NCBI GenBank assembly: GCA_041658325.1
Contig: JBBAAI010000001.1
Span: 279,266-343,265, forward strand
Length of the DNA stretch: 64,000 nucleotides
Direction: 5' to 3'
From: Minisyncoccota bacterium
GTDB lineage: Bacteria; Patescibacteriota; Minisyncoccia; Phycocordibacterales; UBA9973
Shown here: piece after piece, positions 27,109 through 62,702 of the stretch
How positions within the stretch are numbered: position 1 is the stretch's first letter
Layout: each line of letters begins with the position of its first letter
Notes under the pieces: model-generated
Databases searched by the model: none
Told to the model about the DNA's origin: nothing
What the model saw: the letters and a program-made list of their open reading frames with translations, nothing else
Program-made: the position numbers and the translations under genes

Positions 27109-27152
27109 ATTACACTTTTTTTAATTAATAATGTTAATTTGTAATTAGTTAA

Positions 27153-27584: not shown

Positions 27585-27588
27585 GTTA

Positions 27589-29075: not shown

Positions 29076-29240
29076 CAATTTTAAAAAAAGTTTTAGAATA
29101 TTAATCCTTTGTGTAAAAAACACCTTTCTAAATAATGGTGTTTTTTTTATTGTAATAAATGAGTCACAATTTTGTGATTTTTTTTCATGTCAAAATTAGA
29201 ATAATCCTAAATAAAGGAGATTATAAATAATTAAAAAAAG

Positions 29241-29456
29241 ATGAGAAGCATTGAAAGAAAATTTAAGTATGTTCAGAGAAAAAATCCTTACTGGTCATCA
29301 TTCACTTGCTTTGCCAACACAGTACGTGGGAGGAACTTTAGTAGAGATAGAATTAGGAAATATTTCAACGAATTGGTAGACAAAGAAGAATATGCAAAAG
29401 ACGAGAAGGGGCAAATATTAAAATACTTGTACGACTTAACAAAAGACATGCTGTAG
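29241..29456 (+). CDS. Hypothetical small basic protein (71 aa)
   Basis: ORF only. Confidence 0.3.
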   Translation: MRSIERKFKYVQRKNPYWSSFTCFANTVRGRNFSRDRIRKYFNELVDKEEYAKDEKGQILKYLYDLTKDML

Positions 29457-29472
29457 CGTACCAGTTTTAGAT

Positions 29473-29937: not shown

Positions 29938-30008
29938 TATACACAAATAGTATACACATATAGTAATTGATATTATTCATCTCTCCTGCGGATAGATGAA
30001 CCCCCTAT

Positions 30009-30041: not shown

Positions 30042-30326
30042 GGTTGGCCTAATACGATTATGGTGGTGCGAAGTTAAAACTATTTAGGTGGTTTTTTCCA
30101 ACAATGCGTCAAAAATAAATTAGAAATGATATAATGAAGGAGCTACACGAAAGGTTAATAAGCGAAATTAATTTTATGCCTAGAGAGGGGCAACGAGACC
30201 TTTTGTGTAGCTACAGAAAGTCGCTTCGTTGTCCCTCTTTCGGTATTACTAATAACACGCCTGAAGATGCATCGCTAGATTATTTGGCAAGTATTCTGGT
30301 TGGGGCATTCTTGGATAAAAAAGAAC

Positions 30327-31880
30327 ATGAACATAACCAATTACACAAATCAAAAGAAAGCAGTAATATATTGCCGAGTATCAACCAAAGAACAAGTTGA
30401 CGAAGGCAACAGTTTAAGTACCCAAGAGAAAATCTGTAGAGAATATTGTTTTAAAAATGAATATGATATTTTCCAAACTTTTCTTGAGCAAGGGGAAAGT
30501 GCAAAGACGGCAGACCGTACAGAGCTTCAAAAGCTTCTTGCCTTTTGTGCGGATAAAAAGAATCAAGTAAAAGCAGTAGTAATTTATAAACTGGATAGAT
30601 TGTCTCGCAATACAGATGATTATAGTCAACTTCGTCTTTTACTAAAAAGATATGGAGTGGAAATTAAATCTACATCAGAACATTTTGAAAATAACCCTGT
30701 AGGTCGTTTTATGGAGAATACTATGGCGAATATCGCACAATTTGATAATGACATCCGCTCTGAACGCTGTGCTGGTGGAATGAAAGATGCCATGCGTGAT
30801 GGTAGGTATGTGTGGATGGCTACGGTGGGATATGACAACGTAAAAATAGCAGGGAGGGCAACTATTGCACAAAACGAAATAATGGCTCCATTGATAAAGA
30901 AAACATTTGAACTTATCGCCTTAAATACTTATCCAACGGAAGAAGTTCGAAGAATGATAACAAAAGAGGGGTTGTTAAATCGTAAAGGAAATCCTTTTTC
31001 AAAGGGATATTTTTATAAAATGCTTACCAATGAACTTTTTGCAGGGTGGATTGTTAAGTTTGGAGAAAGGCATAAAGGTACTTCTTTTACACCGATTATC
31101 TCGGAAGAACTTTTTAACCAAGTACAAAGGATATTAAAAAGAAAGGGGAGAAAACATTCTGCTTATCTTACAGATAATCCAGATTTTCCACTTCGTAAGT
31201 TTATAAAAAATGATACAGGTAAAGTACTAACGGGTAGTTGGTCTAGCGGAAGAGATAGAAAATATCCTTTTTATCGTTTTGGTAACGACAAATCAAGTCT
31301 TAATAGAGATACTTTTGAAAAAGACTTTAAAGAATTTATGGATAGATATAAATTAGATGAGAAACATTATCAAAAACTTAAAATACTTGTCCGAGACAAT
31401 CTTACAAAAGCAACATCTGAGCAGAGGAAAGAAGCCGAGCAACTTCAAAAACATATTGATGAATTAAATGAAAAACAATCTGCAATCATTAAGAAGAATC
31501 TTGATGGGGTAATTAATGATAATGTTTTAAAACAACAGCTAGAGCTTATTGAAAATCAATTAACAGATGCAACAGCTTCTCTTTCTAACATTCCAAATAG
31601 TGATGCTGACTACGAAAAGATGCTTGATTTTATGGAAGAATATTTAAAACAACCAAGCAAGATATGGTCTGAAATAAAAAAGGTAGGGATAAAAATTAAA
31701 CTTCAATGGTTCCAATTTCCTTTAGGTTTGACGTTTGAAAATAAAATATTTGGAACCAAGGAAGTAGCTAGTGTTTTCAAAGTAAAAGACGCTTTTTCAG
31801 CGTCTTCGTACTCTAGGGTGGACCGTACAGGACTCGAACCTGCCACCCCCTCATTGCAAATGAGGTGCTCTACCAGATGA
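30327..31880 (+). CDS. Large serine recombinase (resolvase/invertase-type catalytic domain plus recombinase and coiled-coil domains)
   Basis: The catalytic motif AVIYCRVSTKEQ contains the nucleophile Ser. The resolvase core YKLDRLSRN is followed by a ~350-aa C-terminal extension with a coiled-coil. The last ~20 codons read antisense through tRNA-Ala. Confidence 0.85.
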   Translation: MNITNYTNQKKAVIYCRVSTKEQVDEGNSLSTQEKICREYCFKNEYDIFQTFLEQGESAKTADRTELQKLLAFCADKKNQVKAVVIYKLDRLSRNTDDYSQLRLLLKRYGVEIKSTSEHFENNPVGRFMENTMANIAQFDNDIRSERCAGGMKDAMRDGRYVWMATVGYDNVKIAGRATIAQNEIMAPLIKKTFELIALNTYPTEEVRRMITKEGLLNRKGNPFSKGYFYKMLTNELFAGWIVKFGERHKGTSFTPIISEELFNQVQRILKRKGRKHSAYLTDNPDFPLRKFIKNDTGKVLTGSWSSGRDRKYPFYRFGNDKSSLNRDTFEKDFKEFMDRYKLDEKHYQKLKILVRDNLTKATSEQRKEAEQLQKHIDELNEKQSAIIKKNLDGVINDNVLKQQLELIENQLTDATASLSNIPNSDADYEKMLDFMEEYLKQPSKIWSEIKKVGIKIKLQWFQFPLGLTFENKIFGTKEVASVFKVKDAFSASSYSRVDRTGLEPATPSLQMRCSTR

Positions 31881-31891
31881 GCTAACGGCCC
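31819..31891 (-). tRNA. tRNA-Ala (anticodon TGC)
   Basis: The cloverleaf was read by hand. The acceptor is GGGCCGT/ACGGTCC with the G3:U70 Ala identity pair. The anticodon loop is TTTGCAA and the T-loop is TTCGAGT. The discriminator is A. Confidence 0.85.
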
Positions 31892-31939
31892 ATATTATTT
31901 TTTCAATCCCGCTTTTCTTATCCTATGTTGCTTTTACGA

Positions 31940-38854: not shown

Positions 38855-40942
38855 ATGAAAAAGATAAATAATATTGTTTTTGGTTTATTGGTCGCAACGT
38901 TGTTCGCTGGTGTTACTCCAGGTGTAGTTTTCGCAGCTGATAATGAAAGTATTTCATTAGCAGGAGTTGACGCTCGCACGATTGTAACAAACGGAACGAC
39001 GAGTTATGTTTCTAATTTTAATAATACTAATGTTTCAACATTAGATTTTAGTCTTATTCCTCCCGCTTTATCTGCGACAGCTTCGCTTGTTGGTGATGGT
39101 GCTTATGGTCTTTCTTTTGCTAGCGGTAATCTTTTTATAGCAGCTGGAAAATATGATTCAGCTTCCACTTATGGTGGGTTGCAAGTACTTGGCACTTCTG
39201 CTATTTATGGAAAAACTGATACCTATACATACAGTAAGGTTTTCGCTGTAAGCGGTGGATCAGCTTTCTCTGCCTTTCTTGATGGCTCATATATTCCTTA
39301 TCTTGAAGCAGTTTCGTACGATGGTGCTTCTACCATTACTCCTGTTTCTGATGTTGCATTAGATACAACATCAGTTAATGATATTACTGCACTTACTATT
39401 TCTGGAAGTAATGCATATGTTGGGATACAGGATAGTTCAAATGCCGGTTATGTTAAGGTTGTAGATACTTCTACAATGACTTCAACTGGAACATACACGA
39501 CCACTGACACCATAACTTCTGTAACAGTAAGCGGAAGCAATCTATATGTAGGACACGGAAACAAGGTTGATGTTGTAGATACTTCTGGATTAAGTCTTTC
39601 GTCTACTATAGAGACAGGGGCAACAGTCAATGGTTTAGCAACTGATGGAACCTATCTCTATGTGGCAAATGCAAATGGACTTAGAGTTTACACTCTTTCA
39701 GGTTCATTCGTAGGTGAACGTAATACTACAATGAGTGCCACCGCAGTTTCTGTCGATGGTGGTTTTATTTATGTTGCAACCAGTAACGGAACAAATAGTG
39801 AAGTATTTAAAATTAAAATGGTAGTTATCACTTTGACTGGAGCTAATCCACAAACTATAGAATTTGGTGCTGGCTATACAGAATTAGGTGCAACAGTTAG
39901 CGATGGTTCAACTCCTGTAATTACTTCAGACTTTGTTGACGCAATTGGTTCTTATACTGTTACTTATACTGCAGTTGATGCTTCAAGTAATCCCGGTTTT
40001 CAAGTTACAAGAACAGTAAATGTTTCTGACACTACCGCCCCAACAATTACTCTTTTGGGAGCTAATCCACAAAATATTCAGCAAGGTTCTGGTTATACAG
40101 AGTTGGGTGCAACTACGAACGATGGTTCTTCTGTGCAAATAAACACTTCTGCTTTTGTTGACGCAGTTGGTTCTTATGTCATTACTTATGATTCAGTTGA
40201 TGCTTCAGGAAATCATGCAACCCAAGTTGAAAGAAGGGTAAATGTTACTGGCCCAGTAGGCGGCGGTGGAGGCGGTAGCGGTGGTGGCGGATCCTCTGGA
40301 GACACCACTCCTCCCACAGACACTTCTATCTCTATCAGTGCAGGAGCAACTTCCACAGCTACACTAGCCGTTTCTCTAACTCTCGGAGCTACTGGTGCTA
40401 CTCAAATGATCATCTCAAACGATGCAGGATTTGCTGGAGCATCTTGGGAAACATATGCGACAAGTAGAGCTTGGACACTTACTTCTGGAGATGGATTGAA
40501 GACAGTTTATGCAAAGTTCAAAGATGCTGCTGGTAACATATCTGCTGCTATTTCAGATACTATTACTGTTTCTGGAAGTGGGACGACAACAACCACTACT
40601 GGATCTATTCCTGGATGTACTGGAACCACTGGTTACAGTATCACTACTGGCCAATCTTGTGCGGGAAATACAGGAGGGCAAGTTTTGGGCGCTGAAAAAT
40701 TTATTTTCACACTTTTCCTAAAACAAACAACTCCTCCACCATATCCAAAACTTGTTGCCTATGTTAATGAGGTAAAAGAACTTCAAAAATTCTTGAATGC
40801 TGCTCCATATAATAGTGGTTTAGTAGTTGATGGCAAATTTGGTCCACTGACTAAGGCTGCAGTTATTAAATTCCAATTGGCAAATGGATTAGTAGGGGAT
40901 GGTAAAGTTGGTCCTCTTACCCGAGCAGTGTTGAACAAATAA
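38855..40942 (+). CDS. Secreted surface protein: beta-propeller-like repeats, two Ig-like (DUF5011-type) domains, Gly-rich linker, C-terminal PG_binding_1 domain
   Basis: A signal peptide is predicted. Repeated SGSN(L/A)YVG...VVDTS blocks are LVIVD-like. The Ig-like domains are tandem, each LTGANPQ.I..G.GYTELGAT..DGS....TS.FVDA(I/V)GSY.(V/I)TY..VDASSN. The Gly-rich linker is GGGGGSGGGGSSG. The C-terminal PGB1 domain is VVDGKFGPLTKAAVIKFQLANGLVGDGKVGPLT. Confidence 0.65.
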   Translation: MKKINNIVFGLLVATLFAGVTPGVVFAADNESISLAGVDARTIVTNGTTSYVSNFNNTNVSTLDFSLIPPALSATASLVGDGAYGLSFASGNLFIAAGKYDSASTYGGLQVLGTSAIYGKTDTYTYSKVFAVSGGSAFSAFLDGSYIPYLEAVSYDGASTITPVSDVALDTTSVNDITALTISGSNAYVGIQDSSNAGYVKVVDTSTMTSTGTYTTTDTITSVTVSGSNLYVGHGNKVDVVDTSGLSLSSTIETGATVNGLATDGTYLYVANANGLRVYTLSGSFVGERNTTMSATAVSVDGGFIYVATSNGTNSEVFKIKMVVITLTGANPQTIEFGAGYTELGATVSDGSTPVITSDFVDAIGSYTVTYTAVDASSNPGFQVTRTVNVSDTTAPTITLLGANPQNIQQGSGYTELGATTNDGSSVQINTSAFVDAVGSYVITYDSVDASGNHATQVERRVNVTGPVGGGGGGSGGGGSSGDTTPPTDTSISISAGATSTATLAVSLTLGATGATQMIISNDAGFAGASWETYATSRAWTLTSGDGLKTVYAKFKDAAGNISAAISDTITVSGSGTTTTTTGSIPGCTGTTGYSITTGQSCAGNTGGQVLGAEKFIFTLFLKQTTPPPYPKLVAYVNEVKELQKFLNAAPYNSGLVVDGKFGPLTKAAVIKFQLANGLVGDGKVGPLTRAVLNK

Positions 40943-43355: not shown

Positions 43356-43832
43356 ATGCAAAAAAAATCTTCTCCAAAAAAAAATAAAAAAACAGTTATG
43401 GTTAGTGGAGGATTTGATCCTGTGCACATAGGACACGTGCGAATGTTCAATGAGGCAAAAAGATTGGGAGACAGACTTGTGGTAGTAATAAATAATGATA
43501 ATTGGCTGAGATTAAAAAAGGGATATTCTTTTATGTCGGAAGACGAAAGAAAAGAAATTATTGAAGCCTTCAACTCAGTTGACGAAGTGGTAATAACTAG
43601 CCACACGGAAAACACAAAAGACATTAGTGTTTGCGAAGAAATACGTAAAATAAAACCACATATTTTTGCGAATGGTGGAGACAGGAAACCAGATGGTGAT
43701 CCAGTTCCAGAGGTAACAGTTTGTGCAGAGCTTGGTATCCAAATGGTTTATAATGTAGGACTTGGTGGAAAAGTTCAAAGCTCGTCGGAGCTTGTAAAAA
43801 AAGCAAAAAAAATAAGCAAAAAGAAAAAATAA
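43356..43832 (+). CDS. Cytidylyltransferase-fold sugar-phosphate nucleotidyltransferase (RfaE domain II / TagD-like)
   Basis: The Rossmann-like nucleotidyltransferase HIGH motif is present in VMVSGGFDPVHIGHVRMF. The 158-aa size matches a standalone CTP/ATP transferase domain. Confidence 0.7.
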   Translation: MQKKSSPKKNKKTVMVSGGFDPVHIGHVRMFNEAKRLGDRLVVVINNDNWLRLKKGYSFMSEDERKEIIEAFNSVDEVVITSHTENTKDISVCEEIRKIKPHIFANGGDRKPDGDPVPEVTVCAELGIQMVYNVGLGGKVQSSSELVKKAKKISKKKK

Positions 43833-43833
43833 A

Positions 43834-44601
43834 ATGTTACCACAAAAAAAAATTATTGCTTTTGATCTTGATGGAACCTTAACCGTAAGTAAAAGTCTGA
43901 TAACGGAAGAGGTTGCTGATTTAGTTAAACAACTTGCTAAACAAAAAATCGTTGTGATAATCAGTGGCGGATGGTTAAAACAATTTAAAACACAATTTCT
44001 TCCGCCTTTTCACGGTGATGATTCTATGGCTCCTTTTGTTCGTAATTTAATCTTGTTGCCGACGAGTGGAAGTCAGAGATATGAATATAATGAAGAAAAA
44101 AAAGAGTGGGAACTTACTGACAAAGAACCACTAGATGATGGCGTAAAAGAGCGAGCGAAGAAATTACTGCAAGGTGTTATTGATTCTGGTTTATATGATA
44201 TACCGTCGAATCCGATAGGCGAAATTATTGAAGACAGAGATACCCAAATAACCTTTACCCCGAACGGTCAGCAAGCGCCGATAGAGTTGAAGAGACTTTG
44301 GGATCCTGATAGAAAAAAAAGGGAAAAAATAAGAGCAACGCTGGCTCCACAATTACCAGAAGTTGATCTTTTGATTAACGGGAGCTCTAGTATTGATATT
44401 TTAGCAAAAGGATTTAATAAGGCGGTGGGATTAACACGACTACTGGATAAACTCCATCTTCAAAAATCAGACATGCTTTTTGTGGGAGATGCGCTTTTTC
44501 CAGGGGGAAATGACTATTCTGTTTTTGAGGCGGGGATAGAAACCATTGCGGTAAAAGGACCAGAGGAAACTGCTTCTGTTATTAGGCAGTGGGTTGGCTA
44601 A
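43834..44601 (+). CDS. HAD-IIB hydrolase of the eukaryotic-type phosphomannomutase family
   Basis: HAD motif I is FDLDGTLT. The C-terminal FVGDALFPGGNDYSVFEAG...AVKGPEETASVIRQWV aligns with the PMM2-family block FFGDKTMPGGNDHEIF...TAPEDTRRICELLF. Confidence 0.6.
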   Translation: MLPQKKIIAFDLDGTLTVSKSLITEEVADLVKQLAKQKIVVIISGGWLKQFKTQFLPPFHGDDSMAPFVRNLILLPTSGSQRYEYNEEKKEWELTDKEPLDDGVKERAKKLLQGVIDSGLYDIPSNPIGEIIEDRDTQITFTPNGQQAPIELKRLWDPDRKKREKIRATLAPQLPEVDLLINGSSSIDILAKGFNKAVGLTRLLDKLHLQKSDMLFVGDALFPGGNDYSVFEAGIETIAVKGPEETASVIRQWVG

Positions 44602-44630
44602 AAAATCATTTAGTAATATAATAGAAGAAT

Positions 44631-44981
44631 ATGGAGGGACTTAAAATATATAAAGAGGAACGTCCGTGGGGCGGATTTGAGCAATTTGTCCAGAATACTC
44701 TCTCAACAGTAAAAATTATTTTAGTAAAAAAAGATGAAGCCTTTAGTTTGCAGTATCATAACAACAGAAAAGAGTTTTGGAAAATTCTTTCCGGAACGCC
44801 AGAAATTACAATAGGGGATTCTGTTGTTCGGGCAAAAGAAGGAGATGAATTTGAAATACCACCGAAAACAAAACATCGTGTTCATTCTAGTGATACTGAT
44901 ACAGAATTTTTAGAAATTTCGCTTGGGGAGTTTGATGAAAATGATATTATAAGGCTAGAAGACAAATATGGCCGTGCTTAA
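44631..44981 (+). CDS. Cupin-2 domain protein, type-II mannose-6-phosphate isomerase-like
   Basis: ERPWGGFEQF...KIILVKKDEAFSLQYHNNRKEFWKILSGT...IGD...EGDEFEIPPKTKHRV...DIIRLEDKYGR matches the C-terminal cupin of GMP/PMI (RPWG...HxHR..EHW..VSG...HR..N..EDDIVR.EDxYGR). Confidence 0.65.
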   Translation: MEGLKIYKEERPWGGFEQFVQNTLSTVKIILVKKDEAFSLQYHNNRKEFWKILSGTPEITIGDSVVRAKEGDEFEIPPKTKHRVHSSDTDTEFLEISLGEFDENDIIRLEDKYGRA

Positions 44982-46212
44982 AAAAAGGAAAATAATTAAA
45001 AAAAAGAAAATTAAAATTGCTGTAAAAAAGAAAACAGTAATAAAAAAAGTTTCTCCAAAAAAGAAAAAGAAAGTTATTGTAGTGCGAAGAAAAATAATAA
45101 AGAAAAAGATTGTAAAAAAAACAGTATTGAAACCAAAAAAGAAAGGCAAAAAATTAGCAAAAATTTTAAAACTTTCCAGATCTTCGCGTAATCCAATTAT
45201 TGATCCAGGGGCACATTATTGGGAATCTCAAGCTGTCTTTAACCCAGCAACAGTTGTTTCAAATGGACGCATACACCTTTTTTATCGAGCTCTTGGTGGA
45301 GACGGTATTTCTCGTATTGGTTATGCTTCTAGTAAAGATGGAATAAATTTTGATGAAAGACTTTCTTATCCAGTTTATTTTTTGAAAAACGATGAAGAAA
45401 TGAAAAAGCATTGGCCTTATACTTCTCCCGCACGACCTGTTTATGACACGGCTCTCTATGCTTCAGGTGGAGGGTGGGGTGGTTGTGAAGACCCTCGTGC
45501 AGTGTTAATAGGAGATAAAGTATATATGACTGTTAATATTTTTAATGGTTGGAATTCTATACGGGTAGCGGTAATTTCGATTAAAGAGGAAGATTTATTA
45601 GATAAAAAATGGCTTTGGCAAGATTTTTCTTACCTCTCTCATCTAGGAGATAGGCAAAAAAATTGGCTTTTATTTCCTGAAAAGATAAACGGTAAATTTG
45701 CGATATTTCACAATTTAGATAAAGGTGATCCATCGCGGGTGTCCATTGCTTTTGTAAATAAGCTTGATACTTCTGAAACACCCTCCGGGAAGAATGCTCC
45801 AGATCCCCAGACTCTACCAGATCACATTGTGGCTTGGCATAAACGTACTCGTAGTGCCGCTGCTCCACCGATTAAAACCAAAGAGGGTTGGCTTCTTTTA
45901 TACCATGCTATGGACAAAGACAATTCTCGTTATAAATTAGGTGCATTATTGCTTGATTTAAAAGATCCGGAGAAAGTTCTTTATCGAGCCCAGCATCCGA
46001 TTCTTGAGCCAGAGACTTGGTATGAAAATGATTGGAAGCCAGGAATTATTTATGCGAGTGGCGCGATTGTGTTGAAAGATAAACTTTTTGTCTATTATGG
46101 AGGAGGAGATAAACACATCGGTGTAGCATCAATAAAACTCTCCGACTTGATAGATAGTATGAAAAAGAATGGATCGGTAAAATTAGAAAAAAACAAATCA
46201 CTAAAATTTTAA
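44968..46212 (+). CDS. GH130-like glycoside phosphorylase/hydrolase (DUF377 beta-propeller) with Lys-rich N-terminal tail
   Basis: After ~65 aa of K-rich sequence, NPIIDPGAHYWESQAVFNPA...FYRALG...IGYASSKDGINF is a GH130/DUF377 block. Repeated GW.LLYH and YYGGGD patterns are present. It overlaps the cupin gene by 14 nt. Confidence 0.7.
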   Translation: MAVLKKRKIIKKKKIKIAVKKKTVIKKVSPKKKKKVIVVRRKIIKKKIVKKTVLKPKKKGKKLAKILKLSRSSRNPIIDPGAHYWESQAVFNPATVVSNGRIHLFYRALGGDGISRIGYASSKDGINFDERLSYPVYFLKNDEEMKKHWPYTSPARPVYDTALYASGGGWGGCEDPRAVLIGDKVYMTVNIFNGWNSIRVAVISIKEEDLLDKKWLWQDFSYLSHLGDRQKNWLLFPEKINGKFAIFHNLDKGDPSRVSIAFVNKLDTSETPSGKNAPDPQTLPDHIVAWHKRTRSAAAPPIKTKEGWLLLYHAMDKDNSRYKLGALLLDLKDPEKVLYRAQHPILEPETWYENDWKPGIIYASGAIVLKDKLFVYYGGGDKHIGVASIKLSDLIDSMKKNGSVKLEKNKSLKF

Positions 46213-46221
46213 TAAGTATTT

Positions 46222-48159
46222 ATGTACGTAGTAAAAAGATCTCATCATAATCCAATCCTTGCCCCATATAGAGACCATTATTGGGAGGCTTTTGCTACGT
46301 TCAATATGAGTGTCGTAAAAAAAGGTAAAACTTTTTATGGTGTATATCGCGCTATTTCGGCAGAAGATAGATTACTTACTCCACATCAAATTTCTACTAT
46401 AGGTATAGGAAAAAGTGAGAACACTGTGCACTTTGAAGATTGTGTACCTTTTATTGTACCTGAAGAAGAATGGGAAAAATACGGTTGTGAAGATCCACGC
46501 ATTACTTTCTTTGAAGGAAATTATTATACATTTTATACAGCTCTTTCAAAATATCCTTTTGAAGCCAGCGGAATCAAAGTTGCTGTAGCGATTTCAAAAG
46601 ATTTAAAAAAAATCGATGAAAGACATTTGATAACACCTTTTAATGCGAAAGCAATGACTCTTTTCCCGGAACGCATCAATGGAAAGATCACGGTTATTGT
46701 TACGGTAAATACAGATATGCCTCCCTCGAAAATTGCGATAGCACAAGTAGATAAAATAGAAGATTTGTGGAATCAAAAGTTTTGGGAAAAATGGTATTTG
46801 AACATAGATAAATATGCAGTTGATTTTAGAAGAGTACCGTCTGACCATACAGAGATTGGAGCTTCGCCAATTAAAACTGCTCACGGTTGGTTGCTCTTGT
46901 ATTCACATATTCAAAATTATTTTCCTGGGGGAGACGGCTCTGATCGTATCTTTGGAATTGAAGCGGTACTTCTCGATATTAATAATCCTCTTAAAATTTT
47001 AGGACGGACGCGTAGTCCTCTTTTAGTCCCTAGAGAATCATATGAACTGTTAGGGCATGTTTCTGATATAGTTTTTCCCTCGGGCGCAATTTTAGAAAAA
47101 GATACACTTTATATTTATTATGGGGCAGCAGATACAACGACTTGTATGGCTCATGTAAATTTGACTGATCTTTTGGGAACAATTCGTCCAGAAACTTCTC
47201 ACAAATGGCGTTTTTGTCGTTCTTCTAAAAACCCAATTATCACACCAGAAAAAACACATTCATGGGAATCTAAAGCTACGTTTAATCCAGCTGCTTTAAG
47301 AATCCGTGGGATAACCCATTTATTATATCGAGCGCTTTCAGAAGATAATACTTCCTCTATTGGTTATGCTAAAAGTAAAGATGGTATTACTTTCTACGAA
47401 AGATCTGAGCAACCCATTTATATTCCAAGAGAAGATTTTGAATTAAAAAAAGTTGCAGGTGGTAATTCTGGTTGCGAGGATCCTAGATTAACGAAAATAG
47501 GGAAAATTATTTATATGTGCTACACAGCCTTTGATGGCATTGGTCCGCCACGTGTTGCTGTTACTTCTATCACAGAGAAAAATTTTCTTCTTAAAAATTG
47601 GCAATGGGAAAAACCTACCATAATAACACCTGCCGGTTTTGATGATAAAGATACTTGTATTTTTCCTGAAAAAACAAATGGTAAATATTTTATTTTGCAC
47701 CGAGTGGGAGATGAAATGTGTGGAGATTATCTTAAGGCACTTAATTTTAAAACTCAAATAGTTAAAAAATGTACCAGAATCATAGGACCAAGAAAAAACA
47801 GTTGGGACAGTTTAAGAGTTGGAATATCTGCTCCACCAATAAAAACAAAATATGGATGGCTGCTTCTTTATCATGGTATTTCAAAAAGCCATCATACCTA
47901 TCGTATCGGAGCTCTTTTACTTGACCTTAAAGATCCAGCTATAATTTTGGCGCGTTCATCTGATCCTATCTTTGAGCCAGAAGAATTATATGAAAAGGTT
48001 GGTATAGTTAATAACGTTGTTTTCCCGTGCGGGATGGTAGAGAAAGATGGTTTGCTTTATATATATTATGGTGGGGCGGATACAGTTGTCGGAGTAGCCA
48101 CTATGGATCTTAAAATTCTTTTAAGAGCTCTCATGAGGGATATAAAGAAAAAAAGGTAA
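46222..48159 (+). CDS. Tandem double GH130-like (DUF377) domain protein
   Basis: Two full copies of the NPI(L/I).P...W(E/S)..ATFN...YRA(I/L)S...IG(I/Y)(G/A)KS.DG..F block are present. Each has HGWLLLY, YYG(A/G)AD and C-terminal beta-propeller blades. Confidence 0.7.
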   Translation: MYVVKRSHHNPILAPYRDHYWEAFATFNMSVVKKGKTFYGVYRAISAEDRLLTPHQISTIGIGKSENTVHFEDCVPFIVPEEEWEKYGCEDPRITFFEGNYYTFYTALSKYPFEASGIKVAVAISKDLKKIDERHLITPFNAKAMTLFPERINGKITVIVTVNTDMPPSKIAIAQVDKIEDLWNQKFWEKWYLNIDKYAVDFRRVPSDHTEIGASPIKTAHGWLLLYSHIQNYFPGGDGSDRIFGIEAVLLDINNPLKILGRTRSPLLVPRESYELLGHVSDIVFPSGAILEKDTLYIYYGAADTTTCMAHVNLTDLLGTIRPETSHKWRFCRSSKNPIITPEKTHSWESKATFNPAALRIRGITHLLYRALSEDNTSSIGYAKSKDGITFYERSEQPIYIPREDFELKKVAGGNSGCEDPRLTKIGKIIYMCYTAFDGIGPPRVAVTSITEKNFLLKNWQWEKPTIITPAGFDDKDTCIFPEKTNGKYFILHRVGDEMCGDYLKALNFKTQIVKKCTRIIGPRKNSWDSLRVGISAPPIKTKYGWLLLYHGISKSHHTYRIGALLLDLKDPAIILARSSDPIFEPEELYEKVGIVNNVVFPCGMVEKDGLLYIYYGGADTVVGVATMDLKILLRALMRDIKKKR

Positions 48160-48207
48160 GAGTTATTTTGGGTATCATCGTTTTATGATATAATCTCTCT
48201 ATATAGT

Positions 48208-49782
48208 ATGAAAAAAAACGACATAGAGAAAGTGATACTAATAGTTTTGGACGGTTTTGGTTTAGCTCCTAGGGGTCCAGGAAATCCTGTAACGGCAAAA
48301 AACATGCCCTTTTTTGATAGTTTAATTTCGACCTATAAATCTTATAGCTTGGTTGCGGCAGGACTCGTGGTAGGGCTTGAGTGGGGGACTTATGGCAATA
48401 GTGAAGTCGGACACGGGGCCCTTGGTACAGGAAGGGTGGTGGTGCAGAGCTTAGCTAGAATTAACTCTGAAATAAAAGATAGAAAATTTTTCAAAAATGA
48501 AGCTTTTTTAAAAATATTAGAGCATGCAAAAACGAATCATTCTAAAATTCACCTTATTGGTTGTGTGAGTCCTGGTGGGCTACATTCGCACGAAGGTCAT
48601 CTTGTCGGACTTTTGAATTTTTTTGCGGAAAATGATTTTTCTTCAGTCTATGTTCACATGATAACCGACGGAGAAGATAGTGTTCCTGAAGAAGGAATAA
48701 AAAGTCTGGAGAGAATAAACGAAGCACTTGTAAAAGCAAAAGCAAAAATTGTTTCTATCGGTGGTCGCGATTATACAATGGATCGTGTAAAAAACTGGCT
48801 TTTAATCAAAAAAGCTTGGGATGTCATGGTGCACGCGAATGGAGAAAAATATAAAATCCCATCAGATTATTTAAAAAAATCCTACAAAGAGGGGATATTT
48901 GATCCTGATATTGTTCCAGCTTCTTTAGTAGACGATAAGGGACAAAGTATTAAAATAGAAGATGGTGATGGAATTATTTTTTTTAATTTTAGGAATGATC
49001 GAATGAAACAAATAGTAGCACCTTTTGTTTTTGAAGATTTCAAAGATTTTGAAAGGGGTCATATTTTAAAAAATTTAATGGTTGCTACAATGACCAACTA
49101 CGATGACAGTTTTAAAGTATTGGTCGCTTATCCTCCCGACATTCCTGTAAATACTCTGGGAGAAGTTATAAGTAAAAATAAAATGAAACAGCTTCGTTTT
49201 GCAGAGGGTGAAAAAGAAGCTCACGTTACAAACTTTTTTAATGGAGGGAAGCTCGATCCTTATTCCGGAGAAGAAAGAATAATCGCTCGTTCTCGAGCCC
49301 TCTTAGGAAAAGGATATTTAGAACACCCAGAGATGTCTGCTCAAAAAATAACAGAAAATATTTTAAGTAATATTGATAAGCTGTATAGTTTAATGGTTGT
49401 GAATTTTGCTAATAGTGATATGGTGGCGCATTCGGGAGATATTCCTGCTGTAGAAAAAGCTTTAAGTGTTGTGGATAAATCATTAGAAAAAATAATAAAA
49501 GCAGCTGATTTGTCTAAAATGGCGATTATTATAACAGCTGATCATGGCAACGTAGAAGAGATGGTGGACCCAGCTACCAATACTCCAGATACTCAACATT
49601 CAACAGTGAATGTTCCCATTATATTTATAAATGAAAAATTCAAAGATCCAAGTGATAAAAATTTGGATAATTTGTATCAACAAAACCCAGTAGGATCGCT
49701 TATTGACGTAGCCCCAACAATTTTAGGTATTTTGGGCATTGATAAACCTAAAGAAATGTCTGGGACTAAGATTATAGATTGA
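48208..49782 (+). CDS. gpmI: 2,3-bisphosphoglycerate-independent phosphoglycerate mutase
   Basis: The iPGM N-terminus LIVLDGFGLAP is present. The catalytic Ser region and metal-binding residues are ADHGN and MVAHSGD. Confidence 0.9.
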   Translation: MKKNDIEKVILIVLDGFGLAPRGPGNPVTAKNMPFFDSLISTYKSYSLVAAGLVVGLEWGTYGNSEVGHGALGTGRVVVQSLARINSEIKDRKFFKNEAFLKILEHAKTNHSKIHLIGCVSPGGLHSHEGHLVGLLNFFAENDFSSVYVHMITDGEDSVPEEGIKSLERINEALVKAKAKIVSIGGRDYTMDRVKNWLLIKKAWDVMVHANGEKYKIPSDYLKKSYKEGIFDPDIVPASLVDDKGQSIKIEDGDGIIFFNFRNDRMKQIVAPFVFEDFKDFERGHILKNLMVATMTNYDDSFKVLVAYPPDIPVNTLGEVISKNKMKQLRFAEGEKEAHVTNFFNGGKLDPYSGEERIIARSRALLGKGYLEHPEMSAQKITENILSNIDKLYSLMVVNFANSDMVAHSGDIPAVEKALSVVDKSLEKIIKAADLSKMAIIITADHGNVEEMVDPATNTPDTQHSTVNVPIIFINEKFKDPSDKNLDNLYQQNPVGSLIDVAPTILGILGIDKPKEMSGTKIID

Positions 49783-49881: not shown

Positions 49882-51750
49882 ATGAGGAAAATATTTAAAA
49901 GTAAAATTTTAATATTAATAATCTTATTGGGGCTATCAGCTCAAATAGCTTTTGCTTATAGTATTACACCGTTTGGTATTACTGATGCTATTCCCGGGGG
50001 GATAACAATAGACGGAGCCGGGAATATATATACGGCAAACTACAATGGTGCAAATAACGTCTCTAAAATCACTCCAGCCGGTGTTTCAACTATTCTTGGC
50101 ACTACTGGTGCCGAGCCGACCGGCATAATAACAGACGGAGCCGGGAATATATATACGGCAAACTATAGCGCAAATAACGTCTCTAAAATCACTCCAGCCG
50201 GTGTTTCAACTATTCTTGGCACGACTGGTACCAATCCGTATAGTATAACAATAGACGGAGATGGGAATATATATACGGCAAACATTGGTTCAGATAATGT
50301 CACTAAGATCACCCCAGCCGGTGTTTCAACTATTCTTGGCACTACTGGTGCCGGTCCGTATGGTATAACAATAGACGGAGCTGGGAATATATATACTTCA
50401 AACTATAGCGCAAATAACGTCTCTAAAATCACTCCAGCCGGTGTTTCAACTATTCTTGGCACGACTGGTAATGGTCCATGGGGTATAACAATAGACGGAG
50501 CTGGAAATATATATACTTCAAACTATGAAGCAAACAACGTCTCTAAAATCACTCCAGCCGGTGTTTCAACTATTCTTGGCACTACTGGTGCCAATCCGCA
50601 AGATATAACAATAGACGGAGCTGGGAATATATATACTTCAAACTATAGCGCAAATAACGTCTCTAAAATCACTCCAGCCGGTGTTTCAACTATTCTTGGC
50701 ACTACTGGTACCGAGCCGCAAGAGATAACAATAGACGGAGCTGGGAATATATATACGGCAAACAGTGGCTCAAATAATGTTTCTAAAATCACTAATCCGA
50801 CAATCACCGAAGTAACTCCGGTTACAACGCCAATAGTTACTGATAGTCTATTAGACTATACTTTTAATAGCAATAGCGATGGATCAATTTCTGTAGGGGG
50901 CTCTTGTGGTTCAATCACAACAAGCGCAATCGCAGGAGATAATGCTATTACTTTTGATGCGCTTCCTGCTGGCACATATTCTAATTGTACAATAATAGTT
51001 ACCGATAGTTTTGGTCCAAGTAATACGCTTGCAGTTTCTTCTTTTGTTGTTTCTACTACCCCCACCGTCACATCTTCTCCTGCCACAAACATAACTAGAG
51101 TCGGAGCCACCTTAAATGGAGAAATCACTGCTACCGGAGGAGCCGATGCTACCGCCAGAGGTTTCCAATATGGTATGACCAACAGTTATGGCACGACAGT
51201 TACTGAATCAAGTGGTCCCTACAGTACAGGAGTCTTCACCGCTGACCTCTCTAACTTACTCACCTGTGGTCAACCCTACTATTTCCGTGCTTACGCTACC
51301 AACATTGCAGGTACGAGCTATGGAGCAGAAACTACTTTTACCACCACTACTTGTGATACCGGAGGGGGAGGAGGCGGAACAGTAACTCCACCTCCAGTAA
51401 TTCCTCCCGTAACCCCACCCGTTGTTCCTCCTGTCACTCCACCGGTTGTACCACCACCCACAACCATAAACACCATCTGTAATCTTGGAGATAATTTCAG
51501 TGCTACAACTGGTTTGCCTTGTACTTCTTATTATCAAACAAATCCAACATCAAGTTGTCCCATTACTGTTACTTTAAGGTTTGGTTATAGGGGGAATCAA
51601 GTTAAATGTTTACAAATAGGTTTAAATATTTCTGCTGATGGTATTTTTGGATTACAAACCAAAGCGGCTGTTATTAAATTTCAAAAAAGCAAGGGTTTGG
51701 TGCCAGACGGAATATTTGGTCCTAAATCACGAGCTTTGTGGCTAAAATAA
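49882..51750 (+). CDS. Secreted repeat protein: ~9 tandem 40-aa beta-propeller (NHL/SBBP-like) repeats, Pro-rich linker, C-terminal PG_binding_1 domain
   Basis: A signal peptide is predicted. The repeat ITIDGAGNIYT(A/S)NY.ANNVSKITPAGVSTILGTTG occurs ~9 times. The Pro-rich linker is PPVIPPVTPPVVPPVTPPVVPPP. The C-terminal PGB1 domain is ADGIFGLQTKAAVIKFQKSKGLVPDGIFGPKS. Confidence 0.65.
   Translation: MRKIFKSKILILIILLGLSAQIAFAYSITPFGITDAIPGGITIDGAGNIYTANYNGANNVSKITPAGVSTILGTTGAEPTGIITDGAGNIYTANYSANNVSKITPAGVSTILGTTGTNPYSITIDGDGNIYTANIGSDNVTKITPAGVSTILGTTGAGPYGITIDGAGNIYTSNYSANNVSKITPAGVSTILGTTGNGPWGITIDGAGNIYTSNYEANNVSKITPAGVSTILGTTGANPQDITIDGAGNIYTSNYSANNVSKITPAGVSTILGTTGTEPQEITIDGAGNIYTANSGSNNVSKITNPTITEVTPVTTPIVTDSLLDYTFNSNSDGSISVGGSCGSITTSAIAGDNAITFDALPAGTYSNCTIIVTDSFGPSNTLAVSSFVVSTTPTVTSSPATNITRVGATLNGEITATGGADATARGFQYGMTNSYGTTVTESSGPYSTGVFTADLSNLLTCGQPYYFRAYATNIAGTSYGAETTFTTTTCDTGGGGGGTVTPPPVIPPVTPPVVPPVTPPVVPPPTTINTICNLGDNFSATTGLPCTSYYQTNPTSSCPITVTLRFGYRGNQVKCLQIGLNISADGIFGLQTKAAVIKFQKSKGLVPDGIFGPKSRALWLK
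49990..50790 (+). repeat. Near-identical ~120-123-bp tandem DNA repeats (about 7 units) inside the 49882 gene
   Basis: The block ctctaaaatcactccagccggtgtttcaactattcttggcac recurs at ~120-bp period with only a few substitutions per unit. The repeats are in-frame coding. Confidence 0.7.
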
Positions 51751-59364: not shown

Positions 59365-60390
59365 ATGAAAAAAATAAGAGTGGGCATTAATGGTTTTGGG
59401 AGAATTGGCAGGGCTTTTTTGAAGATTGCCCTAGAGAGACCAGAAATTGAAATAGTGGCATTAAACGATCTGGGTGACATTGCTAATATGGCCTATTTAC
59501 TTAAACATGACACGGTTTATCGAGAATGGAATCACAATATTTCTGTGGACGGAGACTCTTTAGTAATTGATGGAAAAAAAGTAAAAGTCTTAGCGCAAAA
59601 AGATCCAAGTGCTCTTCCTTGGAAAGATTTAGAGATAGACGTAGTGGTGGAGTCAACTGGACTTTTTATTTCTTATGATAAAGCAAATGCACACATTAAA
59701 GCAGGAGCAAAAAAGGTGGTAATTTCTGCGCCGGAGAAAGGTGGAGATGGCACAGTACAGGGGGAGACAATTCTGCTTGGGGTGAATGAAGAAAAATTTG
59801 GTGTCTGTGATATTACTTCAAATGCGTCTTGCACGACGAATGCCGCTAGCCCCTTAATCGCGATTTTAGATGAGGCGCTTGGTATAGAGAAAGCAATTTT
59901 AAATACCGTGCATGGATATACCGCTTCCCAGGGAATTGTCGATGGACCAAATAAAAAAGATTTTCGTGAAGGTCGCGCCGCAGCGCAAAACATCGTGCCT
60001 AGTTCTACCGGGGCGGCTATTGCCGTGACCAAAGCTTTTACAAAACTAGAAGGACTTTTTGACGGAGTGGCGATGAGGGTGCCAGTGCCAGCTGGATCTA
60101 TCGTAGACGTTACTTTTATTTCCAAAAAGAATACATCTAAAGAAGAAGTAAATGAAATTTTAGAAAAAGCATCTAAAGATGAAAGATGGAAAAATATTTT
60201 TGCTGTTACCGAAGAAGAACTTGTTTCAAGTGATATTCTTGGGAGCAAATACGGCTCTATCGCGGATCTAAAAATGACTCGTGTGGTCGGAGGTAATCTC
60301 GTAAAAGTTATGGGCTGGTACGACAACGAAATGGGATATGCCTACACTCTAGTTGACCACGTTATCAAAACAGGGGAGACTATAAAATAA
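59365..60390 (+). CDS. gap: Glyceraldehyde-3-phosphate dehydrogenase, type I
   Basis: The NAD-binding N-terminus is RVGINGFGRIGR. The catalytic Cys is in SNASCTTN. Confidence 0.9.
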   Translation: MKKIRVGINGFGRIGRAFLKIALERPEIEIVALNDLGDIANMAYLLKHDTVYREWNHNISVDGDSLVIDGKKVKVLAQKDPSALPWKDLEIDVVVESTGLFISYDKANAHIKAGAKKVVISAPEKGGDGTVQGETILLGVNEEKFGVCDITSNASCTTNAASPLIAILDEALGIEKAILNTVHGYTASQGIVDGPNKKDFREGRAAAQNIVPSSTGAAIAVTKAFTKLEGLFDGVAMRVPVPAGSIVDVTFISKKNTSKEEVNEILEKASKDERWKNIFAVTEEELVSSDILGSKYGSIADLKMTRVVGGNLVKVMGWYDNEMGYAYTLVDHVIKTGETIK

Positions 60391-62694: not shown

Positions 62695-62702
62695 TAAATT
62701 TA

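Follow-up and report, generated by a model that had tools for sequence, protein, structure and literature searches.

Two adjacent GH130 paralogues of Thermoanaerobacter sp. X-514, Teth514_1788 and Teth514_1789 (GH130_6), form a beta-1,2 phosphorylase pair with differing chain-length preference, encoded beside a mannose-1-phosphate (Man1P) guanylyltransferase (Chiku et al. 2014, PMC4264767). In Teth514_1789, which is limited to DP 3 or less, W120 blocks subsite +3 (PMC12814180). GH130 phosphorylases are recognized by a phosphate-binding Arg and His and by the absence of a signal peptide and a carboxylate base (Li et al. 2020, PMC7660257). A Glu beside the catalytic Asp combined with a Lys at the position of UhgbMP R150 (E/K pair) predicts beta-1,2 linkage (PMC7660257, PMC4599007). 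In Uhgb_MS, the exchange R202A lowered phosphorylase activity 16-fold and R242 contacts the donor phosphates; GH130 enzymes have a weak GT activity whose physiological relevance is doubtful (PMC12814180). In the secreted GH130_3 beta-1,2-mannosidases BT3780 and BACOVA_03624, the basic phosphate ligands are missing and a Glu227/Glu268 pair is present (Cuskin et al. 2015, PMC4599007).

In the mannogen cycle of Leishmania, the GT108 enzymes MTP1-7 act on a cytoplasmic beta-1,2-mannan tied to Man1P and GDP-Man (Sernee et al. 2019; PMC10913872). These paralogues are split into GDP-Man transferases lacking the phosphate Arg and phosphorylases with it. Strict transferases have a His at the Arg position and an Arg-to-His exchange abolishes phosphorylase activity, although GT versus GP activity is not decided by this Arg alone (PMC10913872). 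Here we compare these systems with a gene cluster of a tiny Candidatus Nomurabacteria (Paceibacterota, CPR) genome.

Results

The window, i.e. the whole 64,000-nt stretch of DNA analysed, contained the six ORFs of the cluster on the forward strand (Table 1), with successive spacers of 1, 29, −14, 9 and 48 nt; the negative value is a 14-nt overlap between the cupin 3' end and the GH130a start. The preceding sequence-only reading had described six overlapping or abutting genes on one strand. Its coordinates and quoted motifs (HIGH, FDLDGTLT, GDALFPGGNDYSVF, RPWG and EDKYGR) were all recovered, and its family assignments held, with every domain call passing the Pfam gathering score. The gap gene and transketolase piece that it had placed in the window were also found.

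Table 1. Coordinates of the gene cluster and of other features in the window.
Feature	Position	Strand	Remarks
Nucleotidyltransferase (NT)	43356-43832	+	158 aa
Predicted HAD-IIB phosphohexomutase	43834-44601	+	255 aa
Predicted type II PMI cupin	44631-44981	+	116 aa
GH130a ORF	44968-46212	+	tail and a-type domain
Lys/Arg-rich N-terminal tail of GH130a	44968-45159	+	~64 aa
a-type domain of GH130a	45160-46212	+	
Double GH130 (GH130bc) ORF	46222-48159	+	645 aa
b-type domain	46222-47199	+	residues 1-326
c-type domain	47200-48159	+	residues 327-645
gpmI	48208-49782	+	TIGR01307 equivalog
gap	59365-60390		same window
N-terminal transketolase ORF	62640-63545		same window
Sigma-70 gene	10293-11519		K-rich tail

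The gene order NT, variable slot, cupin, GH130a and GH130bc was kept in most of 80 related genomes. In the 55 related loci whose upstream sequence reached far enough, an a-type GH130 gene lay 5' of the double protein in 54, the NT gene in 48, the cupin gene in 45 and all three in 38; given these frequencies, the arrangement is not due to chance. Synteny alone is weak evidence, since the Nomurabacteria loci also share unrelated genes (HPF and fmt). In the annotated subset of flanking ORFs from the 80 Nomurabacteria loci, the only recurrent neighbours were SIMPL, MscL, HPF and fmt, and no transporter, binding protein or secreted glycosidase or glycanase was seen. The operon itself encoded no mannosyltransferase, and a hydrophobic N-terminus or signal peptide was absent from all its GH130 proteins.

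The last of the six genes was identified as 2,3-bisphosphoglycerate-independent phosphoglycerate mutase (gpmI; NCBIfam equivalog TIGR01307, 509.8 against a cutoff of 330.65; Pfam iPGM_N, 214.1 bits). The cluster had been thought to feed into gpmI, a view contradicted by the related loci: gpmI was found within 2.5 kb downstream of the module in only one of 66 loci and was present in two of 80, the usual neighbours being HPF and fmt. The link is incidental, and gpmI is an adjacent gene outside the module.

The combination of a-, b- and c-type GH130 domains recurred in distant lineages (as a-b-c, a/b-c, c-b/x-a and a-c). The neighbouring gene there encoded a GT2, a PMM-family HAD, a canonical ManC (402.6 versus 372.95) or a class I ManA (161.6 versus 116.2). 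In locus L081 all three domains form one polypeptide; a canonical ManC gene overlaps this triple GH130 gene, and GT2 and sugar-nucleotide enzymes are encoded upstream. In L084 an a-c GH130 protein is followed by a PMM-family HAD. The earlier suggestion that GH130, PMM and PMI belong together is thus borne out.

The cupin scored 63.8 bits against PF01050 (MannoseP_isomer; cutoff 23.6), aligned to profile positions 13-116 of 116 and contained the motifs RPWG, QxH..E.W and DDxxRxxDxYGR. Its match to TIGR01479, the model of bifunctional type II PMI-GMP (ManC/AlgA/XanB), was limited to the C-terminal part (positions 361-467) and stayed below the cutoff because only the PMI third of the model is present. 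The protein is predicted to be a stand-alone type II PMI that interconverts Fru6P and Man6P, a function supported by a canonical class I ManA at the equivalent position in L083. As in the bifunctional enzymes, which occur in polysaccharide clusters, the PMI cupin is coupled by adjacency or fusion to a predicted Man1P nucleotidylyltransferase; in contrast to their NTP_transferase/GT-A-like half, the transferase is here a protein of ~150 aa with an HxGH cytidylyltransferase fold.

The HAD protein contained FDLDGTLT (DLDGT/DxDGT nucleophile) and PGGNDY (GGND), and matched PF03332 (PMM; 38.3 bits, cutoff 22.4), Hydrolase_3 (53.2) and TIGR01484 (71.6, cutoff 41.8). By HMM it therefore fell inside the PMM family, as the cupin did inside the PMI-type cupins, and it carried the profile, DxDGT and GGND marks of the PMM/PgmH family. 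Its description as a eukaryotic-type PMM agrees with PF03332 but not with its closest characterised relative, the alpha-phosphoglucomutase PgmH of L. lactis (4bnd; E 1.6e-34), a glucose mutase. This alignment spanned the full length, and PgmH and eukaryotic PMM1/2 share the HAD-IIB type and both motifs; matches to PMMs had E values of 1e-14 to 1e-6. Unlike in those systems, the slot is variable: across related loci it held a Cof-type HAD (14), DUF1361 (7) or a classical PGM_PMM phosphohexomutase (1, L037), or was empty (6). The PMI/GH130 context and the PGM_PMM replacement suggest a mutase in this slot, while neither context nor sequence discriminates glucose from mannose. We predict a Man6P/Man1P mutase, although the substrate may be a glucose phosphate.

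The NT had K-rich termini and an HxGH motif (HIGH), and scored 57.2 bits against PF01467 (CTP_transf_like; cutoff 21). It had no PF00483 match and was rejected as an NTP_transferase-fold ManC/GMP. Its best NCBIfam match was rfaE_dom_II (TIGR02199) at 77.6 bits, below the cutoff of 181.5, placing it in the wider cytidylyltransferase superfamily and not among the orthologues of HldE (heptose-1-P adenylyltransferase). The best PDB matches were ethanolamine-P cytidylyltransferase, 3glv and TagD. To our knowledge, enzymes of this fold act on heptose-1-P, polyol-phosphates and FMN, and we know of none acting on alpha-Man1P; HldE takes the beta anomer.

Fusions of such an NT with a PMI cupin were found in >100 Parcubacteria proteins, and at least 119 of the best 120 homologues of one of them (P0095) carried both PF01467 and PF01050. 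All four fusion genes inspected lay within polysaccharide-synthesis clusters (Wzx/Wzy/GT). Because of these fusions and their location, the NT would behave as an analogue of ManC, and we predict a mannose-1-phosphate nucleotidylyltransferase with a cytidylyltransferase fold. Man1P activation had been mentioned earlier as an alternative role; the context now points to NDP-mannose formation, i.e. to anabolism or cycling, with the NT as an integral member of the operon.

PF04041 (Glyco_hydro_130; cutoff 26) matched GH130a with 131.5 bits and the double protein with 319.6 bits in two stretches. The AF2 model of the double protein (pLDDT 92.4, pTM 0.84) showed five-bladed beta-propellers, with Teth514_1788 (9fj8) as the best Foldseek match (E 1.5e-28, TM 0.90 over the target); MTP2 and MTP4 were matched at E about 1e-10. 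Across 68 a-, 79 b- and 82 c-type orthologues, the catalytic proton-donor Asp at the UhgbMP D104 position (D175/D91/D420) and, in the −1 subsite, the Asn (N92/N28/N355) and Asp (D381/D304/D620) were invariant, as was the E/K pair (E174/K231, E90/K143 and E419/K476). The classes differed at the phosphate site. The phosphate Arg (UhgbMP R168, Uhgb_MS R202) was kept in every true c-type and missing from every true a- and b-type orthologue, and the His at the UhgbMP H231 position was kept in a and c but not in b. Class-specific invariant residues occurred at positions 195-197, the site of Uhgb_MS R242. In a and b, the alignment showed a short loop L2 as in Teth514_1788.

The c-type domain has the signature of a canonical beta-1,2-oligomannan phosphorylase: Asp420, Glu419/Lys476, Arg494, His551, Tyr560 and Arg532, with N355 and D620 in the −1 subsite and no Trp lid. 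The same active-site signature is found in Teth514_1788, with which it shares 45% identity (9fj8, E 1.7e-62; 7fip, E 1e-56). In sequence as well as fold, the domain is close to the characterised Teth514_1788 and Teth514_1789. Its score for beta-1,2-mannobiose phosphorylase (NF052550, 419.7 bits) was slightly below the cutoff of 450. In the c-class the Arg was present in 79/82 (the three exceptions had a-type markers), and His and Tyr in 82/82 each.

The a-type domain keeps the catalytic Asp175, the mannose-binding (−1) residues Asn92 and Asp381 and, in the +1 subsite, Arg107 and the Glu174/Lys231 pair. Asn249 occupies the position of the phosphate-binding Arg, where the class has S36/N27/A4/G1 (Arg 0/68), and Arg295, Lys357 and Trp195 are invariant. 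Class-wide, the R196 equivalent was found in 68/68, the K258 equivalent in 67/68, the His (H313) in 65/68 and the Tyr in 68/68. The Trp at the Teth514_1789 W120 position was present in 68/68, and with this lid the domain is predicted to be restricted to DP 2-3. Its predicted mechanism is non-canonical, that of an NDP-Man transferase or of a phosphorylase with a relocated Arg. In the N-terminal tail of GH130a, basic residues make up 60% of one 30-aa window. The K-rich tail had been regarded as atypical for GH130; it is rather a trait of this genome, being similar to that of the sigma-70 gene. Such tails also occur in a-type orthologues, whereas the distant a-types of L081 and L083 have none. 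The tail is presumably translated, given its conserved open frame.

The b-type domain keeps Asp91, Asn28, Arg43, Glu90/Lys143 and Asp304 but has lost three of four phosphate ligands, with Thr161, Ser228 and Phe244 in their place and a His shifted by +1 from Ser228. Among the 79 orthologues, the Arg position was S49/T26/A4 (Arg 0/79), the His position S77/A2, and Tyr was replaced by Phe in 78. The invariant residues of the class were His209, Glu211, Glu247 and Asp165, with counts of 79/79 for E211 and E247 and 77/79 for H209; the b-signature was found in 31 diverse representatives. In the mannosidase BT3780 the candidate for the base is Glu268; Glu211 is placed at its position by the end coordinates of the alignment, with a chain offset of +4 throughout, and not by a superposition. 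The domain resembles BT3780 and BACOVA_03624 in the loss of the basic phosphate ligands, the retained Asp, Glu and Lys199 equivalent, and the Glu at the Glu268 position. It differs in having no signal peptide and lying outside any PUL, it scored far below the NF058598 cutoff of GH130_3 mannosidases, no counterpart of their second Glu (Glu227) could be identified, and its similarity to BT3780 (63.8 bits) was lower than to phosphorylases (126.9 bits). Most likely, judging from its residues, the b-type domain is non-phosphorolytic and hydrolase-like.

The sequence-only reading had named a lack of the phosphate-binding residues and of the catalytic Asp as speaking against its view, and this applies by half: the Asp is kept in all three domains, and the complete Arg/His/Tyr set in c. 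Types a and b are not canonical phosphorylases, because the phosphate Arg is missing in every orthologue and b also lacks His and Tyr.

Discussion

The sequence-only reading had considered this gene combination not to be a described operon, which is only partly so in view of the Thermoanaerobacter cluster. Both have adjacent GH130 paralogues beside a (here predicted) Man1P nucleotidylyltransferase, and the a-type domain shares the Trp of Teth514_1789. However, the present operon has three paralogues, two of them without the phosphate Arg, and two fused domains; it contains PMI and PMM, a different NT fold and no ABC transporter, GH5 or GT4. The enzymes of the mannogen cycle share the five-bladed propeller, the catalytic logic and the split into paralogues with and without the phosphate Arg. 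They belong to another CAZy family, have His where Ser, Asn or Thr is found here, and offer no counterpart to the hydrolase-like features of b. Membership of a and b in GT108 was rejected at 14–15% identity to MTPs, and the comparison concerns the way of working.

Every enzymatic activity and the direction of flux are read here from the genes present, their conservation and fusions, their residue patterns and their neighbours. Because only one of the three GH130 domains resembles a normal phosphorylase, the organism may build and recycle a mannan and not merely consume one. A strong rival, which we nevertheless place on the unlikely side, is the original proposal of purely catabolic scavenging, in which imported beta-mannosides would yield Man1P and, via PMM and PMI, Fru6P for glycolysis with a saving of ATP. 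The three GH130 domains would then differ in the chain length or substrate that they serve, and phosphate would be bound unconventionally in a and b. GH130 phosphorylases have an established role of this kind with PMM and PMI (PMC4264767), c is canonical, and a retains Lys, His and Tyr together with an invariant Arg295 that could stand in for the lost Arg; with a lidded by Trp and c left open, the two resemble the phosphorylases for mannobiose and for oligomannan in Thermoanaerobacter. Yet among the recurrent neighbours in the 80 loci neither a transporter or binding protein nor a secreted glycanase was seen, unlike in that cluster, beta-1,2-mannan is scarce in the environment, gpmI adjacency is not conserved, and b lacks most phosphate ligands. 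The NT, conserved here and fused to PMI in biosynthetic clusters elsewhere, would be left unexplained.

The NT is accounted for if GH130 frees Man1P from acquired or recycled beta-1,2-mannosides for conversion to NDP-mannose and use by glycosyltransferases encoded elsewhere in envelope glycan synthesis, while PMI and PMM would supply that pool de novo. Just such a salvage was put forward by Chiku et al. for GH130 genes beside Man1P guanylyltransferase (PMC4264767), and it fits the ManC overlap and upstream genes in L081 and the NT-PMI fusions within Wzx/Wzy clusters. We consider it improbable: the conservation of two Arg-less classes beside a phosphorylase is not explained, and the Nomurabacteria operon has no mannosyltransferase. 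It overlaps heavily with building and recycling of a mannan, the sole difference being a mannoside end product versus a reserve. A further reading is that GH130a and GH130b are catalytically dead and, within a hetero-oligomer, bind carbohydrate or act as a scaffold for c, the single active phosphorylase domain. It would agree with the obligate oligomers of GH130 and the donor site of Uhgb_MS shaped by the dimer interface (PMC12814180), with the b-c fusion and its confident inter-domain arrangement, and with the single a-b-c polypeptide of L081. This is very improbable, as the catalytic Asp and all −1 and +1 subsite residues are invariant in a and b (68–79 orthologues plus distant representatives), and further invariant residues, specific to each class and newly acquired, are gathered around the active site, a pattern of changed chemistry and not of decay.

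Building and recycling of a mannan is the explanation that we prefer, tentatively and at slightly less than even confidence. The cupin would interconvert Fru6P and Man6P, the PMM/PgmH-type HAD Man6P and alpha-Man1P, and the NT would convert Man1P to NDP-mannose, doing the job of ManC with another fold. Domain a, with its Trp lid (DP 2-3) and two extra invariant basic residues, would make or handle a short primer, plausibly from NDP-Man. Domain c would catalyse Man_n + Pi <-> Man_n-1 + Man1P, and b, with its lost phosphate site and a Glu at the BT3780 base-candidate position, would trim by hydrolysis. Against this, all pathway enzymes are reversible, so that these genes could also work in the catabolic direction, and we know of no report of beta-1,2-mannan from any CPR bacterium. 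The substrates known for the fold of the NT, its rfaE_dom_II score under the cutoff, the glucose mutase as nearest characterised relative of the HAD protein, the weak GT activity of GH130, the limited say of the Arg in GT108 and the coordinate-based mapping of Glu211 also count against it. If the preferred explanation holds, the conserved operon would let Nomurabacteria build an endogenous cytoplasmic beta-1,2-mannoside or mannan from Fru6P and recycle it phosphorolytically, in a manner resembling the mannogen cycle.

Conservation of the gene cluster

All six plus-strand ORFs of the sequence-only reading were recovered where it had placed them, with every motif it quoted. Each ORF scored above the Pfam gathering threshold, and the spacers between them (1, 29, −14, 9 and 48 nt) indicated tight packing. 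Database records of the exact window proteins, from a Candidatus Paceibacterota MAG, were labelled 'hypothetical protein' or 'adenylyltransferase/cytidyltransferase family protein'. Promoter and terminator scans gave counts at background (41 vs 35.8 ± 5.7 and 10 vs 7.4 ± 3.1, respectively), so operon boundaries could not be drawn.

Coordinates of features in the window and in related loci
Feature	Sequence	Coordinates	Strand	Assignment
Nucleotidyltransferase (NT)	window	43356-43832	+	CTP_transf_like (Pfam)
HAD protein	window	43834-44601	+	PMM + Hydrolase_3 (Pfam)
Cupin	window	44631-44981	+	MannoseP_isomer (Pfam)
Single GH130 (domain a)	window	44968-46212	+	Glyco_hydro_130, single domain (Pfam)
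Double GH130 (domains b and c)	window	46222-48159	+	Glyco_hydro_130, double domain (Pfam)
gpmI	window	48208-49782	+	iPGM (Pfam)
Sigma-70 (RpoD)	window	10293-11519	+	
GT2 glycosyltransferase	window	12809-14053	+	cellulose/chitin-synthase-like
RNase P RNA, bacterial	window	23162-23466	-	
Lowest-GC stretch	window	26000-30000		GC 0.295-0.311
LOOT RNA	window	27845-27966	-	RF03000, 75.3 bits vs gathering score 46.4
Serine recombinase, 526 aa	window	30300-31892		Resolvase + Recombinase
Flanking repeat protein	window	38855-40942		
Flanking repeat protein	window	49882-51750		PG_binding_1
NT-PMI fusion	L088	6001-6966		
NT-PMI fusion	L089	6001-6804		
NT-PMI fusion	L090	6001-6780		
NT-PMI fusion	L091	6001-6837		
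Cof-type HAD between NT and cupin	L008 (and 13 other loci)	5728-6489		
DUF1361 protein between NT and cupin	L055 (and 6 others)	5712-6362		
Classical phosphohexomutase between NT and cupin	L037	4272-5876		PGM_PMM
b-c protein, 1029 aa (P0123)	L083	4591-7680		

With each species represented by one genome, the scan for the double GH130 protein returned 272 relatives, and 80 loci were kept. Every related locus belonged to a MAG of Candidatus Nomurabacteria, Paceibacterota or Patescibacteria. In the 55 loci whose available upstream sequence reached 4.8 kb or more, the single GH130 was located upstream of the double protein in 54, the NT in 48 and the cupin in 45, with all three together in 38; a PgmH-like HAD protein was upstream in 23. 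The commonest downstream neighbours were HPF (40 of 66 loci) and fmt. gpmI was within 2.5 kb downstream in only one of 66 loci, and synteny thus ruled it out as a pathway member. The glycolytic link is therefore incidental, and the earlier suggestion that the module feeds into gpmI was dropped.

Sister genomes carried different genes in the slot that separates the NT from the cupin. It held a PgmH-like HAD at 21 loci, a Cof-type HAD at 14, a DUF1361 membrane protein at seven and a classical phosphohexomutase at one, and was empty at six. The Cof-type HADs were distinct from the PgmH-like proteins, shared 72–84% mutual identity and had no PMM Pfam match; they are candidate mutases, or candidate phosphatases giving free mannose as a primer.

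Residues of the GH130 domains

Compared with solved structures, domain c matched the beta-1,2-oligomannan phosphorylase Teth514_1788 (E 1.7e-62) and the beta-1,2-mannobiose phosphorylase Teth514_1789 (E 1e-56); a and b matched the same two enzymes more weakly. The AF2 model of b-c (pLDDT 92.4, pTM 0.84) superposed on Teth514_1788 with a TM of 0.90. Mechanism and linkage criteria were taken from PMC7660257 (Table 2), PMC4599007 and PMC12814180, and were applied to domains of the 80 loci (a-type, 68; b-type, 79; c-type, 82) aligned with the two Thermoanaerobacter enzymes. The proton-donor Asp, the Asn and Asp of subsite −1, the Arg of subsite +1 and the Glu/Lys pair marking beta-1,2 specificity were invariant in all three types. 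Differences were found at the phosphate site, including the Arg position 18 residues after the Lys (UhgbMP R168, Uhgb_MS R202). The three c-type exceptions at this position bore a-type markers and were misassigned.

Phosphate-site and class-specific residues, numbered as in the window proteins and counted across orthologues
Position	a-type	b-type	c-type
Phosphate Arg	Ser/Asn/Ala/Gly, never Arg (N249)	Ser/Thr/Ala, never Arg (T161)	Arg (R494), 79/82
Phosphate His	retained (H313), 65/68	Ser (S228); S77/A2 of 79	retained (H551), 82/82
Phosphate Tyr	retained (Y322), 68/68	Phe (F244), 78/79	retained (Y560), 82/82
Class-specific	R295 (68/68), K357 (67/68), W195 (68/68)	H209 (77/79); E211, E247, D165 (79/79 each)	Lys/Arg at the Uhgb_MS R242 position (R532), 79/82

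The a-type Trp195 aligned with Teth514_1789 W120, which obstructs subsite +3 and restricts that enzyme to DP 3 or less (PMC12814180). The segment containing a-Arg295 and b-His209/Glu211 showed a gap-free alignment with Teth514_1788 R195-V196-G197 and with Uhgb_MS R242, a residue that binds the donor phosphates (PMC12814180). Based on the alignment coordinates of 5a7v and a +4 chain offset (checked at BT3780 Asn74 and Asp363), rather than on superposition, b-Glu211 would correspond to BT3780 Glu268, the stronger of two catalytic-base candidates in this beta-1,2-mannosidase (PMC4599007).

The K-rich tail of the single GH130, which the sequence-only reading called atypical for the family, was ruled out as GH130-specific: the sigma-70 protein of the window has a similar N-terminal tail (63% K/R in 30 aa), and distant a-types have none. 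Lys-rich tails appear to be a trait of the source genome.

The GH130 triad in distant lineages

A search with domain b against 1.84 billion cluster representatives yielded 2762 relatives, with E values under 1e-30 for 107. The signatures of a (NREDKH[S/N]YHAD), b (NREDK[LFV][T/S/A]Y[S/A/C][H/Y]D) and c (NREDKHRYHGD) all recurred among these relatives. The a-types kept the R196-equivalent in 89% and the K258-equivalent in 100%, and the b-types kept the E197-equivalent in 94%. Domain order varied, as did the neighbouring genes. In L081, a-b-c formed a single protein of 971 aa; a canonical Man-1-P guanylyltransferase gene (TIGR01479, 402.6 vs 372.95) overlapped its gene, and GT2 and sugar-nucleotide enzymes were encoded upstream. 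In L083, a class I ManA (161.6 vs 116.2) preceded a and then b-c. Elsewhere, c-b and then x-a adjoined a GT2 (L086), a-c was followed by a PMM-family HAD (L084), and x-c and then b had GT2, methyltransferase and BacA genes nearby (L082). Since the PMI, PMM and Man-1-P nucleotidylyltransferase neighbours of the triad differed, the association outlasts non-orthologous replacement, and as evidence this weighs far more than the synteny seen within Nomurabacteria.

The metagenome representatives P0125, P0157 and P0197 were GH130 variants lacking both the phosphate Arg and His (NREDKY[C/S/F/Q]YN[A/G]D), at times in both domains of a double protein; judging from these sequences, Arg-less GH130 diversity exceeds the a and b types. 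The b-c protein of L083 carried approximately 390 additional C-terminal residues without a Pfam match. A GT2 adjoined the triad in the distant L081 and L086; the GT2 of the window stands 30 kb upstream of the GH130 genes.

Predicted enzymes of mannose phosphate metabolism

The cupin was a homologue of the type II PMI C-terminal domain (63.8 bits, profile positions 13-116 of 116). The HAD protein belonged to the PMM family, with L. lactis alpha-phosphoglucomutase as its best characterised relative (4bnd, E 1.6e-34); it is a predicted phosphohexomutase, for which the context suggests a preference for mannose. The NT was placed generically in the HxGH cytidylyltransferase superfamily. The best-scoring model, rfaE_dom_II, stayed under its cutoff, and the PDB neighbours of the NT were ethanolamine-P, glycerol-3-P and choline-P cytidylyltransferases and 3glv.

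Comparative evidence from fusions and neighbourhoods was decisive for the NT. One homologue (P0095) was an NT-PMI-cupin fusion, and when it was used as the query, at least 119 of the best 120 matches were fusions of this kind, from Kaiserbacteria, Parcubacteria and Paceibacterota. These proteins of about 260–320 aa are abundant in Parcubacteria and are publicly annotated as 'cytidyltransferase-like', as 'adenylyltransferase/cytidyltransferase family protein' or, mistakenly, as heptose-phosphate adenylyltransferase. All four fusion genes whose contigs were examined were located in surface-polysaccharide clusters with GT4, GT2, Wzx, Wzy, GDP-mannose-dehydratase-like epimerases and methyltransferases; these clusters had no GH130 genes. 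Such clusters are the usual location of manC. Because of the fusions and these settings, the NT and cupin are together predicted to do the work of bifunctional PMI-GMP, with a transferase of another fold. The recurrent fusion to the PMI cupin and the polysaccharide-cluster settings likewise make it less likely that the NT is a TagD or an FAD synthetase of the RibL type.

Other features of the window

Two large, secreted-looking repeat proteins flank the operon region, one of them with NHL/beta-propeller repeats. Both share a similar terminal peptidoglycan-binding-type motif, so they are probably cell-surface proteins. The 3' end of the large serine recombinase overlaps an opposite-strand tRNA-Ala. 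ORFs in the adjacent low-GC stretch, the lowest of the window, had no Pfam matches, and this stretch and the recombinase may constitute an integrated element. The window also encodes LOOT RNA and RNase P RNA.

Proposed pathway and alternatives

The operon very probably concerns mannose phosphates and beta-1,2-mannosides. Its well-supported core would comprise the chain Fru6P↔Man6P↔Man1P→NDP-Man and reversible phosphorolysis of beta-1,2-oligomannan by c. In Uhgb_MS, the R202A substitution lowered phosphorylase activity 16-fold (PMC12814180). The strict GDP-Man transferases of GT108 have His at the phosphate Arg position, and Arg-to-His exchange abolishes phosphorylase activity (PMC10913872). 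A published decision scheme assigns a short loop L2 with only three phosphate contacts to a 'transferase with little or no phosphorylase activity' (PMC12814180). This description suits the a-type, whose lid restricts it to short products; a primer-level role, possibly with NDP-Man as the donor, would therefore be favoured. For the b-type, hydrolysis would be favoured: its phosphate pocket is gone, and among its newly acquired acidic residues one occupies a known base position. Both Arg-less subfamilies are well defined and widely distributed, with the sugar site retained and the phosphate site rebuilt; that a and b are inactive scaffolding domains is very improbable.

An endogenous make-and-recycle cycle resembling mannogen turnover is plausible, with a slightly less than even chance. 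Among the recurrent neighbours no transporter appeared, signal peptides were absent and external beta-1,2-mannan is rare, all of which counted towards such a cycle. We consider scavenging catabolism somewhat unlikely. NDP-mannose salvage, as proposed for Thermoanaerobacter, is rather improbable. The pathway enzymes are reversible and their activities predicted only, so flux direction is not settled by these data. Returning to the endogenous cycle, we tentatively hypothesize, as a reading that is itself rather unlikely, that Parcubacteria (CPR) build and recycle an intracellular beta-1,2-mannan reserve. One operon would use the GH130 scaffold in three chemistries (a as NDP-mannose-dependent primer transferase, b as hydrolase, c as phosphorylase). 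The pathway would be supplied by a mannose-1-phosphate nucleotidylyltransferase of the cytidylyltransferase fold, not recognised before and in many cases fused to a PMI cupin. Such a reserve would be a bacterial counterpart of Leishmania mannogen.

Significance

GH130 beta-1,2 phosphorylases beside a Man-1-P nucleotidylyltransferase (PMC4264767) and GH130-GH130 fusions, listed in CAZy (PMC7660257), were already known. The searched literature yielded no description of two conserved Arg-less GH130 subfamilies always beside a canonical phosphorylase, or of an NT of cytidylyltransferase fold that, paired with or fused to a PMI, stands in for ManC, and mentioned GH130 in CPR, Patescibacteria, Parcubacteria or Nomurabacteria only in passing. 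GH130 is a model family for the switching of one fold among phosphorylase, hydrolase and transferase chemistry. With a canonical phosphorylase at their side, the Arg-less subfamilies would offer natural experiments on this switch, and they could serve as new catalysts in making beta-mannosides. Through the NT-PMI fusion, NDP-mannose would gain a further, non-homologous route, and the findings are relevant to CAZyme and CPR specialists. For uncultured CPR symbionts, in which to our knowledge neither has been described, a core operon linking glycolysis and beta-1,2-mannosides in genomes of ~1 Mb suggests a carbon reserve or an envelope glycan.
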